NCBI RefSeq assembly: GCF_000008665.1
Contig: NC_000917.1
Coordinates: 1,410,001 to 1,442,000 of the forward strand
Source: Archaeoglobus fulgidus DSM 4304
GTDB taxonomy: Archaea > Halobacteriota > Archaeoglobi > Archaeoglobales > Archaeoglobaceae
Length of the DNA: 32,000 bases
Direction: 5' to 3'
Made by a program: the position numbers and the translations under genes. Positions 1,480 to 2,516 of the stretch are shown one piece after another. How positions within the stretch are numbered: the first letter of the stretch is position 1; every line of letters starts with the position of its first letter. The notes beneath the pieces were generated by a model. The model had not been told where the DNA came from, searched no databases, and saw only the letters and a program-made list of their open reading frames with translations.

Positions 1480-2516
1480 TGAAAAAGGTGTTGAGTCTGG
1501 TTTTGGTGTTGGTGATGCTGAGCAGCAGCGTTGTGCCAGTGATGGCGGCGAGCGATGCAGAAAAGTGCAGCTGCGGAGCATGCGAAATAACCTTGAAGAG
1601 AGTTGTCGAAGTGGAACTGGCTAAAAACGGAAAAACGATTCTAAACGTCACTGAAATCAATCAAAGCCTTAGCGAGTGGTTTGCTGAGAACTTCGAAGGA
1701 AGCTTCAGTTGCGCAGACGGAAGCTGTCTTGCTTTCGATTACCAGCTGGAAATTAAGGAGCTACTGAACTTGTCGAAAAACAACAAGGAGCTGAAGTTGC
1801 TTGAGATTAAAGTTTACAACGAAACCACCAGCCACGAATTCAAGCTCCTCAGCTACTTTGCACAAACCGCAACTTACAACCTCAGCCTGATTACGAGAAT
1901 AATGGAAATCGACGGTGAGAACTACTTCGTCACAACCATTAACGTTGCTCCCAAGGACGATAAGAAGTTTGCTCCCTTTGCCGACATCGTGGAGATCAAG
2001 TCCAAAACTACTCTGGCAGAGCACTACAGAATCCTCGCCAAAGTGCTTAACGAGATAAGGAAAGGAGACGATACAAGCTGGGTTTGGAACAAAGCCAAGA
2101 ACGAGCTTAACTACCTGAGCAGGGTTGTTGAGATGGAGCTGGAGGAGTATAATGTCGAAGGATATGGATGGACACTGATAATCGATGATGAGTGTACATC
2201 GGCATGTAGCCTAATTTTAGGTATGGCAGGGGCTACAGTTTGTCTAATCATTTGTTCCGTCACAAATGTTGGTGCTTTAGCTTGTGGTGTTATTTGCTCA
2301 GTTGCTTGGGGAGCAGCATCTGGGACTGCATGTAGTTACTGGTGCACTGGAAACCTTGATCCATGTTCTGCAGGATGTGGCGGATTTTGCTCTGGAGTGT
2401 GCTCAGGTGCCTGTAGCGCACTTCTTTCTAGACTTGGACTAACCTCACTGACATACTTCTGTGAAAAGTATGCATGTGCTCCAGCATGCACAGGAGCGTG
2501 TGAGTCGGTATGCTGA
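1476..2516 (+). CDS. Secreted precursor: Sec-type signal peptide, pro-region, and a 116-aa Gly/Ala/Ser/Cys-rich hydrophobic C-terminus (18 Cys, CxxxC ladder); distant halocin-C8-like bacteriocin precursor candidate
   Basis: The track ORF starts at 1464, but ATG 1476 sits 4 nt after GGTGGA and gives MLKKVLSLVLVLVMLSSSVVPVMA|AS. This parallels MQKKVLSLVLVLAVLESIVPVSA of the 4105 gene. The pro-region (nt 1809..2165) is homologous to ORF 3286..3909. The C-terminus reads ...DDECTSACSLILGMAGATVCLIICSV...CSGVCSGACS...CAPACTGACESVC. Confidence 0.8.
   Translation: MLKKVLSLVLVLVMLSSSVVPVMAASDAEKCSCGACEITLKRVVEVELAKNGKTILNVTEINQSLSEWFAENFEGSFSCADGSCLAFDYQLEIKELLNLSKNNKELKLLEIKVYNETTSHEFKLLSYFAQTATYNLSLITRIMEIDGENYFVTTINVAPKDDKKFAPFADIVEIKSKTTLAEHYRILAKVLNEIRKGDDTSWVWNKAKNELNYLSRVVEMELEEYNVEGYGWTLIIDDECTSACSLILGMAGATVCLIICSVTNVGALACGVICSVAWGAASGTACSYWCTGNLDPCSAGCGGFCSGVCSGACSALLSRLGLTSLTYFCEKYACAPACTGACESVC

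Follow-up and report, generated by a model that had tools for sequence, protein, structure and literature searches.

What kind of protein ends in a tail of 116 amino acids (aa) that carries 18 cysteines, many of them four residues apart, and why should that tail change so abruptly behind a pro-region that does not? The question is raised by AF_1568 of Archaeoglobus fulgidus DSM 4304, which lies in the 32,000-nucleotide stretch of that genome analysed here (the window); the open reading frame (ORF) at 1464-2516 on the forward strand is 100% identical to AF_1568, whose existing annotation is merely a predicted coding region. An earlier note, made from the DNA letters alone, had suggested that the tail could be a new class of disulfide- or metal-stapled membrane-active peptide built on a pro-region chassis shared with a paralogue. 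All parts of that interpretation that could be tested in silico stood, with the qualification that the tail is not free-standing. AF_1568 is a secreted precursor with a swappable, Cys-rich and hydrophobic tail that is genetically coupled to a class-specific membrane protein, and we consider it reasonably probable that it is the precursor of a polymorphic antimicrobial peptide in the style of halocin C8, with the 18-Cys tail as the exchangeable toxin module.

A rare cysteine-rich tail

Translation of positions 2166-2513 reproduced the 116-aa tail of the earlier note exactly, including the count of 18 Cys, both of the Cys runs quoted there and the 11 CxxxC spacings. The gaps between successive Cys are, in order, 4, 12, 4, 10, 4, 12, 4, 7, 4, 4, 4, 4, 16, 5, 4, 4 and 4, and 11 of the 17 thus equal 4. 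None of 100,000 composition-preserving shuffles of the tail reached 11 such spacings (maximum 9), which indicates that the CxxxC pattern is real and far beyond chance. The residues of the tail are almost all Cys, Ala, Gly, Ser, Leu, Thr, Val and Ile, and a grand average of hydropathy (GRAVY) of +0.95 confirms that the Cys are embedded in small or hydrophobic residues.

Profile searches with the tail alone, as had been proposed at the outset, left it unrecognised by any existing model: Pfam, NCBIfam and PADLOC scans of the precursor, the isolated tail, the tail family and the neighbouring genes returned no match to the tail, and a T4_Spackle match (E=0.019), which fell below the cutoff, was judged to be noise. 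An exhaustive HMMER search for tails of the AF_1568 type (class A, below) covered 1.84 billion representative proteins and yielded 7 matches, 6 of them true; the seventh was a repetitive surface protein (P0032, 3291 aa, 30 stretches) in which a short Cys/Thr/Ala stretch was matched repeatedly, and was set aside as spurious. With only these 6 true representatives in the whole collection, the tail is not a region with many housekeeping homologues, an outcome against which the original interpretation had been set. A sequence search of solved structures with the tail gave nothing below E=0.2, and a fold search with the tail model returned only helices of G-protein-coupled receptors and Csp (copper storage) proteins, none significant and none below E=1.7.

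One pro-region with at least six classes of tail

Homologues of AF_1568 form 26 clusters, with E-values down to 1e-145, and are found in Archaeoglobaceae, Thermococcus cleftensis, another Thermococcus-like genome and Ignisphaera aggregans. They are alike through the pro-region as far as a junction, [EDN][YF]N[VI]xG, and a short linker, beyond which divergence is complete. A hydrophobic leader aligns throughout, and the alignment of 23 homologues has invariant and near-invariant columns at aa 129-233. The alignment bears out the proposal of a single pro-region chassis under different tails, and both the shared YNVEGY junction and the CSCGAC cluster are present as described, the latter at aa 35-40, which is after the signal peptide and within the pro-region.

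At least six tail classes stand behind this one pro-region in Archaeoglobi, Thermococcus and Ignisphaera, namely class A, to which AF_1568 belongs (18 or 20 Cys), class B (halocin C8-like, 10-12 Cys), class C (14 Cys), class D (12 Cys, with the motif ECLDPR) and further classes with 8-12 Cys. In all of them the alignment places a near-invariant Asp in the short linker just before the first Cys. A scan of GTDB genomes added 15 loci, all of them in Archaeoglobi. A 20-Cys class-A tail is also borne by a 268-aa protein (P0031) whose N-terminal region has no relation to the AF_1568 chassis, an arrangement that makes the tail a mobile module of its own. The P0031 locus lies on a metagenome contig (L006 5001-6580), where a TP_0789/LolA-like gene follows the membrane-protein gene.

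The AlphaFold model of full-length AF_1568, computed with 23 homologues, consists of a signal helix (aa 2-29), a beta-sheet domain with two helices (aa 43-225, predicted local distance difference test (pLDDT) mostly 72-89, and 72-89 for aa 91-230), a low-confidence linker (aa 232-241, pLDDT <50) and the tail. The YNVEGY junction region, which the model places in a flexible linker, is the presumed processing region. Pfam and NCBIfam scans gave no match to the pro-region, and a fold search with the full-length model found a resemblance of the pro-region to curved-sheet (NTF2-like) proteins that was not significant. A twin-arginine (RR) motif was searched for in the leader, MVDSMLKKVLSLVLVLVMLSSSVVPVMA, and is absent. 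The pro-region of AF_1568 (window 1548-2147) has five Cys, those of CSCGAC (aa 35-40) together with C83 and C88; homologous pro-regions likewise have odd Cys clusters (3 or 5) at shifted positions, for example CGNCSCAC, and these odd numbers contrast with the strictly even numbers of the tails.

Mirrored cysteines in two predicted helical hairpins

The Cys of the tail fall into two blocks, each of which has two halves. In tail numbering (to which 234 is added for protein numbering), block 1 has Cys at 10, 14, 26 and 30 and, opposite, at 40, 44, 56 and 60, and block 2 has Cys at 67, 71, 75, 79 and 83 and, opposite, at 99, 104, 108, 112 and 116. When the halves are nested, the pairs of block 1 (10/60, 14/56, 26/44 and 30/40) each sum to 70, and those of block 2 (67/116, 71/112, 75/108 and 79/104) sum to 183, except that 83/99 sums to 182. 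Eight of the nine nested pairs therefore lie at the modal mirror sum, a result matched by 0 of 5000 shuffles in a test that was computed with a one-residue numbering offset. The same symmetry is seen in all class-A relatives and in the 14-Cys class. The 20-Cys relatives have an extra pair, 18/52, which again sums to 70 and at whose positions AF_1568 has L18 and S52. When this pair is included from the relatives, the spacing of block 1 reads 4,4,8,4 and then 4,8,4,4, a palindrome and not a direct repeat, so that periodicity alone is no explanation for it. The position skipped in the first hairpin is G22, which faces W48, and W48-G49 is invariant within class A.

Structure prediction of the tail, another step that the earlier note had proposed, gave four helices in two AlphaFold runs. 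Hairpin 1 comprises helices 3-33 (9-32 in the full-length run) and 37-61 with a loop at 33/34-36, and hairpin 2 comprises helices 66-90 and 93-115 with a loop at 91-92. Both runs thus place the loops at the two mirror centres, which provides independent support for the mirror reading; the pLDDT of the tail was about 57-71 in the full-length model, with a mean of 70.9 in the tail-only model. The claim that CxxxC periodicity puts thiols on one face of a helix was correct but told half of the story. Mirrored CxxxC sets on both helices of each hairpin are the decisive feature.

This reading is further strengthened by covariation. In an alignment of class A, class C and a divergent relative (P0033), every Cys difference is a whole mirror pair gained or lost: AF_1568 and its closest relatives are without 18 and 52, class C is without 30+40, 67+116 and 79+104, and P0033 is without 83+99 and has gained an extra innermost pair in block 1. 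If Cys were lost at random, the chance of losing whole pairs only would be (120/38760) x (10/190) x (10/190), about 9e-6. The number of Cys is even (10, 12, 14, 18 or 20) in 23 of 23 apparently intact tails, in every class. An internal duplication test of hairpin 1 against hairpin 2 was not significant, and neither hairpin had a significant match to the halocin C8-like domain. The pairwise pattern, with its mirror symmetry, rung-wise covariation and even counts, fits the original idea of a stapled peptide, and the tail probably consists of two helical hairpins with disulfide ladders, for which the simplest reading predicts 4+5 rungs in AF_1568 and 5+5 in most relatives. P0033 itself (L008 641-1873) is a 410-aa protein with a 6+4 rung pattern; its precomputed Pfam label, PF27906 'Gpos_C8-like', was not reproduced by our Pfam scan.

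Ladders of this kind have a smaller known counterpart. In the twin CX3C alpha-hairpinins, two antiparallel helices are linked by C1-C4 and C2-C3 (PMC7191063). The predicted tail resembles the plant alpha-hairpinins and small Tim proteins in having CX3C at mirrored positions on two antiparallel helices, and differs from them in that the known proteins have two rungs whereas the tail would have 4+5 (5+5 in relatives) in tandem hairpins, and in that the tail is strongly hydrophobic and anionic, not cationic or hydrophilic. There is no homology between them, and the disulfides of the tail are ones that we infer.

Class-specific membrane-protein partners

The earlier note had tied the 259-aa membrane protein encoded downstream to the tail, and for class A this genetic linkage is borne out. 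One membrane-protein family comes directly after every class-A tail that could be placed in DNA (8 loci), usually with overlapping stop and start codons. These loci are the window, T. cleftensis, an Archaeoglobus metagenome-assembled genome with a full-length gene and an orphan, the P0031 locus, orphan fragments in three further Archaeoglobi contigs and a metagenome array. The partners are related to one another (pairwise BLASTP, 5e-7 to 1e-25), and their family is narrow, with 6 clusters, like that of the tails. Even at the P0031 locus, where the chassis is unrelated, the same family follows the tail. Other tail classes have other membrane proteins: a 59-aa protein after the C8-like tail (identical in A. 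fulgidus DSM 8774 and in one Logan contig), a separate 238/269-aa family after the class-C tail of T. cleftensis, and proteins of 119 aa and 157 aa after the non-class-A tails of the metagenome array (L024). The 259-aa protein is therefore the candidate cognate immunity protein of the 18-Cys tail.

In T. cleftensis (L003 8147-10809), a second full-length precursor lies downstream of the class-A cassette. A frameshift divides its 14-Cys tail in two (8147-8950 and 8896-9216), and it is followed by two multi-pass membrane proteins that are paralogues of each other and belong to a different family.

Orphan cassettes and exchange between strains

The 10-Cys paralogue of the window (3286-3909) is present as described in the earlier note. 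It is an orphan cassette, truncated at its N-terminus, with neither a signal peptide nor the initial ~130 residues of the pro-region, and it contains the second copy of a 164-bp repeat whose first copy forms the 3' end of the AF_1568 pro-region (Table 1). These repeats are the substrate for cassette exchange, as a comparison of two strains illustrates. In A. fulgidus DSM 8774 the locus is conserved, with a DNA identity of 97-99%, but window positions 1-2166 are joined straight to 3510-4178; the join passes through the 164-bp repeat, and at the 18-Cys tail the DNA identity stops exactly at 2166. The product is a full-length precursor that combines the N-terminus of AF_1568 with a halocin C8-like tail and is followed by the 59-aa gene, while the 18-Cys tail, the 259-aa membrane gene and the truncated N-terminus of the orphan are all missing. 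To judge from the two sequences, DSM 8774 lacks the cassette through recombination at the YNVEGY junction. Its precursor (P0002, L001 6001-6927) is labelled 'Firmicute eSAT-6 protein secretion system EssA' in the source record, a name that nothing here supports and that is probably a misannotation.

Similar remnants are found elsewhere. In the metagenome array, a full-length precursor stands in series with two orphan cassettes that are truncated at the 5' end. The tail of one orphan is 97% identical to that of AF_1568 and comes with a 267-aa homologue of the membrane protein; class-A orphan fragments with a membrane gene are also present in three other contigs (L004, L010 and L014). The three-cassette array (L024 1-7300) has IS1-type transposase fragments on both sides and adjoins a DUF433/DUF5615 pair, which suggests that the array is mobile as a block.

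Relation to halocin C8 and to polymorphic toxins

The 10-Cys tail of the paralogue matches TIGR04449, the halocin C8-like domain, with 60 bits (cutoff 24, E=3.5e-16). AF_1568, in contrast, had no match in NCBIfam at E<=1, and hence none to TIGR04449, and five class-A tails searched alone had no TIGR04449 match in NCBIfam at E<=10. With 116 aa and 18 Cys (most relatives have 20 Cys, and tails of this kind, with their 18-20 Cys, span about 110 aa), the tail also falls outside the C8-like size of 70-76 aa and ten Cys. Measured against the model that defines that family, the 18-Cys tail does not qualify as a halocin C8-like domain.

A more distant connection is indicated by profile-profile comparison with hhalign. 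Classes A and C align with probabilities of 97-98% (E 1e-10 to 1e-13, 90-100 columns), and class B aligns to the first half of class C with 93-96% (E 5e-7 to 8e-9), whereas reversed-sequence controls gave 1e-2 to 4e-4, which is 3-8 orders of magnitude weaker; both links hold with or without the shared linker. The direct comparison of A with B reached a probability of 15-28% over 7-11 columns (24% over 47 columns in one run). On these profiles class A is clearly homologous to the 14-Cys class C, while a distant common origin of class A and the halocin C8-like tails is probable but unproven. The proposal of a new class was thus right in that the tail is distinct and unrecognised by existing models, but the tail does not stand alone: it belongs to a polymorphic precursor family of the halocin C8 type, of which it is a divergent branch.

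According to a preprint's summary of Sun et al. 2005, halocin C8 is cleaved from ProC8 and secreted. The N-terminal HalI immunity domain of ProC8 corresponds to Pfam Hac8_like_N, PF22862 (preprint), and no such match was found in AF_1568 or its paralogue in Pfam at E<=1, in a copy of Pfam assumed to include PF22862. AF_1568 resembles ProC8 in being a secreted precursor in which a larger N-terminal region is followed by a hydrophobic, Cys-rich C-terminal peptide, and in having, 1.1 kb downstream, a paralogue of the same pro-region family with a true halocin C8-like domain. An Asp just before the first Cys in all tail classes and the transitive profile link through the 14-Cys class are further points of likeness. 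The differences, besides the size and Cys content of the tail, are that two hairpins are predicted and not one, that the leader is of the Sec type whereas that of ProC8 is of the twin-arginine translocation (Tat) type, that AF_1568 is linked to a class-specific membrane protein and has a pro-region without a HalI match, and that the hosts are anaerobic hyperthermophiles and not halophiles (Natrinema). Since an identical pro-region lies under different tails in different strains, the pro-region provides no tail-specific immunity, unlike the reported role of HalI, and this is a substantive departure from the ProC8 model.

Gene anatomy points to a second comparison. The contact-dependent inhibition (CDI) system CdiA-CT/CdiI and the Rhs proteins have a conserved N-terminus, a boundary motif, a variable module with a cognate gene downstream, and orphan arrays. 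The AF_1568 family likewise has a conserved part, a sharp motif (E-Y-N-V-E-G in the role of VENN or PxxxxDPxGL) and a variable C-terminus, and directly behind the latter lies a partner gene that changes along with the tail class. N-terminally truncated orphan arrays (window 3286-4103, L024, and L004, L010 and L014) and strain-to-strain replacement by homologous recombination at the conserved 3' end complete the likeness. It differs in that the module is a small, greasy, Cys-rich peptide and not an enzyme toxin, that the partner is a multi-pass membrane protein and not a soluble binding protein, and that delivery is presumably by secretion and diffusion and not by contact or injection; there is no sequence relationship. 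By its gene anatomy, the AF_1568 locus is best classed as a polymorphic toxin/immunity cassette system.

Alternative readings of the tail

The alternative that survives best, although unlikely, is that the tail stays uncleaved and serves as a two- to four-helix membrane anchor for the pro-region, with its polymorphism used for self/non-self recognition or adhesion. The predicted helices are 23-31 residues long, and the first two are of membrane-grade hydrophobicity (Kyte-Doolittle means 1.77 and 1.18), whereas hydrophobicity is weak in the other two (0.97 for helix 3 and 0.38 for helix 4), the last of which also has the residues E, K and E. Small-xxx-small spacing, a classic packing motif of transmembrane helices, occurs in the tail; the partner gene encodes a membrane protein, and no protease gene is evident within the cassette in Pfam and NCBIfam scans. 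An anchor would, however, need neither 18-20 conserved and pairwise covarying Cys nor a class-specific partner, and in front of all tail classes lies a conserved linker of low model confidence in which an Asp is nearly invariant. The paralogous tail, moreover, is a halocin C8-like domain, whose founding member is, in the summary of it given in the preprint, cleaved and secreted.

A further step down, and rather improbable, is a four-helix bundle lined with thiolates, whose reduced Cys would bind metal in the bundle core in the manner of a Csp1/Csp3- or metallothionein-like carrier of Cu(I), Zn or Fe-S. AlphaFold does predict four helices, free thiols would be favoured by an anoxic, sulfidic habitat, and a layer-wise loss of Cys would look pairwise too. 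The parallel with MtCsp3 is genuine, as this protein has 18 Cys, all on the helices of a four-helix bundle, with many CXXXC and no disulfide (PMC5171941), and the tail shares with Csp1 and Csp3 the four helices, the approximate 18 Cys and the many CXXXC. Csp structures also appeared in the fold search, but with E about 7-9 and template modelling (TM) scores of 0.20-0.26 these matches are not significant, and the tail has no Pfam match at E<=10, hence none to Csp/DUF326, which leaves it without any sequence or significant structural match to these proteins. Csps are soluble tetramers in which reduced thiols line a Cu(I)-binding core, whereas the non-Cys residues of the tail are nearly all Gly, Ala, Ser, Leu, Val and Ile (GRAVY +0.95), which would give it a greasy exterior. 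Every intact tail has an even number of Cys, compared with 13, 18 or 19 in Csps. The genomic logic also differs, and metal storage would give no reason for a halocin C8-type cassette with a cognate membrane protein and orphans.

Nested cross-links in a hairpin are found in sactipeptides too, and Ser and Thr are frequent beside the Cys of the tail. That the tail is the core of a ribosomally synthesised and post-translationally modified peptide with thioether (sactionine or lanthionine) bridges in place of disulfides is nevertheless very improbable and was rejected, as no modifying enzyme is present in any cassette: the two radical S-adenosylmethionine (radical-SAM) genes of the window (12224-13396 and 17658-18425) are 10-15 kb away on the opposite strand, the other class-A loci have neither a radical-SAM nor a lanthionine synthetase gene next to the cassette (the sole radical-SAM gene called, in the T. 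cleftensis locus, is ~2 kb upstream beside an NrdD gene), Cys at both mirrored positions fits Cys-Cys pairs and not Cys-to-acceptor links, and, at 110 aa, the peptide greatly exceeds the known cores of sacti- and lanthipeptides in size. Subtilosin-like loci in Thermococcus have been discussed (preprint).

Layout and surroundings of the locus

The features of the locus are collected in Table 1.

Table 1. Positions of the precursor gene, its parts and the adjoining cassettes in the window
Feature	Positions	Strand	Basis or remark
AF_1568 precursor gene, 350 aa	1464..2516	+	signal peptide, pro-region, junction and 18-Cys tail; ORF and AlphaFold layout
Sec-type signal peptide, aa 1-28, MVDSMLKKVLSLVLVLVMLSSSVVPVMA	1464..1547	+	sequence; predicted helix, low pLDDT
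Conserved pro-region, aa 29-228	1548..2147	+	23-homologue alignment; common to all tail classes
164-bp repeat copy 1, 3' end of pro-region	2003..2166	+	84% identical to 3510-3673
YNVEGY junction, aa 229-234	2148..2165	+	conserved/variable boundary; near-invariant N230/G233
18-Cys tail (class A), 116 aa	2166..2513	+	last 116 aa of AF_1568
Predicted hairpin 1, tail residues 9-61	2190..2348	+	mirror sums, AlphaFold helices, table of Cys columns
Predicted hairpin 2, tail residues 66-116	2361..2513	+	mirror sums, AlphaFold helices
259-aa multi-pass membrane protein	2510..3289	+	start overlaps precursor stop (ATGCTGA); hydrophobic segments
Orphan paralogue, 207 aa	3286..3909	+	ATGA overlap with membrane gene; C8-like 10-Cys tail at 3673-3906
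164-bp repeat copy 2, inside orphan paralogue	3510..3673	+	84% identical to 2003-2166
59-aa small membrane protein	3924..4103	+	pairs with C8-like tail; candidate immunity protein of orphan cassette

The precursor locus (window 1-6000) has a G+C content of 0.40-0.46, lower than that of most of the window (0.47-0.55), which suggests an island of foreign or fast-evolving DNA. Two secreted proteins are encoded before the precursor (42-1398, forward strand), one of the DUF6345 family, cut by the window edge, and one of 295 aa; both are conserved in DSM 8774, and in their place other class-A loci have TP_0789/LolA-like genes nearby. Between them and the tail, a stretch of 68 bases (1411-1478), which runs from the AT-rich DNA ahead of AF_1568 into its first codons, recurs at 97% identity in DSM 8774 (L001 4203-4269), where the copy sits directly upstream of the DUF6345-family gene that opens the locus; this repeat may be a shared promoter or leader.

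On the other side, window 4048-5127 (forward strand) encodes a secreted 359-aa protein with a zinc-dependent phospholipase C domain (Pfam Zn_dep_PLPC, E=2.3e-13), whose signal peptide, MQKKVLSLVLVLAVLESIVPVSAWG, is nearly that of AF_1568. Its gene is broken in DSM 8774, where window positions 4179-4706 are lost. This protein might serve the same island as a second weapon, of an enzymatic kind.

Discussion

In the mechanism that we propose, AF_1568 would be exported by means of its Sec-type leader, and the tail would be cut off after export at the flexible linker, near the conserved Asp D241/D242 (tail D7/D8), as in ProC8. The released tail would fold into two consecutive helix-loop-helix hairpins, held by inter-helix disulfide rungs C10-C60, C14-C56, C26-C44 and C30-C40 in hairpin 1 and C67-C116, C71-C112, C75-C108, C79-C104 and C83-C99 in hairpin 2. 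The peptide would then be greasy and of extreme heat stability, and its target would be the membrane or envelope of related archaea in which the cassette is missing, while the 259-aa multi-pass membrane protein would protect the producer. The tail and its overlapping membrane gene are inherited together as one cassette, and recombination near the end of the pro-region sequence (its 3' end) exchanges such cassettes and leaves N-terminally truncated orphans downstream. We hold it to be fairly likely that the tail is cut at the linker near the conserved Asp and acts on related archaea without the cassette; protection of the producer by the 259-aa protein is, to our mind, slightly the likelier role.

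Several observations weigh against this mechanism or against parts of it. Periodic CxxxC runs such as those of hairpin 2 yield constant mirror sums automatically, so that only hairpin 1 and the covariation can tell a mirror from a repeat. AlphaFold models the tail with no more than moderate confidence (pLDDT 60-75), from a shallow alignment of 11 sequences. A strict 4-residue period drifts by about 40 degrees per rung on an ideal alpha-helix, which means that five consecutive rungs need strongly supercoiled or locally distorted helices. The habitats of A. fulgidus and Thermococcus are anoxic and sulfidic, and exposed disulfides are not obviously stable there. At the sequence level, the direct comparison of class A with the halocin C8-like tails is not significant, and the 259-aa membrane protein could be a processing or export factor instead of an immunity protein.

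Both AF_1568 and CL1_0815 of T. cleftensis are annotated as hypothetical, and NCBI already gives some class-B relatives the name 'halocin C8-like domain-containing protein'. To our knowledge, no halocin C8-type antimicrobial peptide system has been characterised outside halophiles, and we know of hardly any archaeocins from hyperthermophiles. The survey of Makarova et al. 2019 is said to have extended the halocin C8 family to diverse archaea, and C8-like members of the AF_1568 chassis may already be included in it. In the literature searched, which did not cover that survey, we found no mention of AF_1568 and no halocin C8 homologues linked to Archaeoglobus or Thermococcus, and a 2026 preprint that counts TIGR04449 matches across GTDB does not mention Archaeoglobus. 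The precursor and its cassette logic belong with halocin C8 and the polymorphic toxins, while four things appear to be undescribed: the double-hairpin tail with 18 or 20 Cys, the membrane partner dedicated to it, the reading of its Cys as a mirrored ladder and the natural contrast between the two strains. A tentative generalisation, which we hold with somewhat less than even confidence, is that these loci define a new archaeocin class of anaerobic hyperthermophiles, with tandem hairpins of four to six CX3C rungs each and toxin/immunity cassettes that recombine at YNVEG.

If the ladder reading is true, the tail would hold 9-10 disulfides in about 110 residues, far beyond the two-rung motif of the alpha-hairpinins and small Tims, and a disulfide hairpin with five consecutive rungs would be an unusually heavily stapled mini-protein, of interest to those who design heat-stable scaffolds. 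Disulfides, if present, would also raise the question of how they are made and kept in an anoxic, sulfidic setting at about 80 °C. The locus itself is complete: next to the precursor with its swappable toxin tail it has a candidate immunity gene as well as an orphan cassette. Moreover, TIGR04449 recognises one of at least six tail classes, which means that the armoury of the family is under-counted. As DSM 4304 and DSM 8774 differ by exactly one cassette, the two strains would constitute a natural killing/immunity pair, in which the former is the candidate immune strain and the latter the candidate sensitive one.

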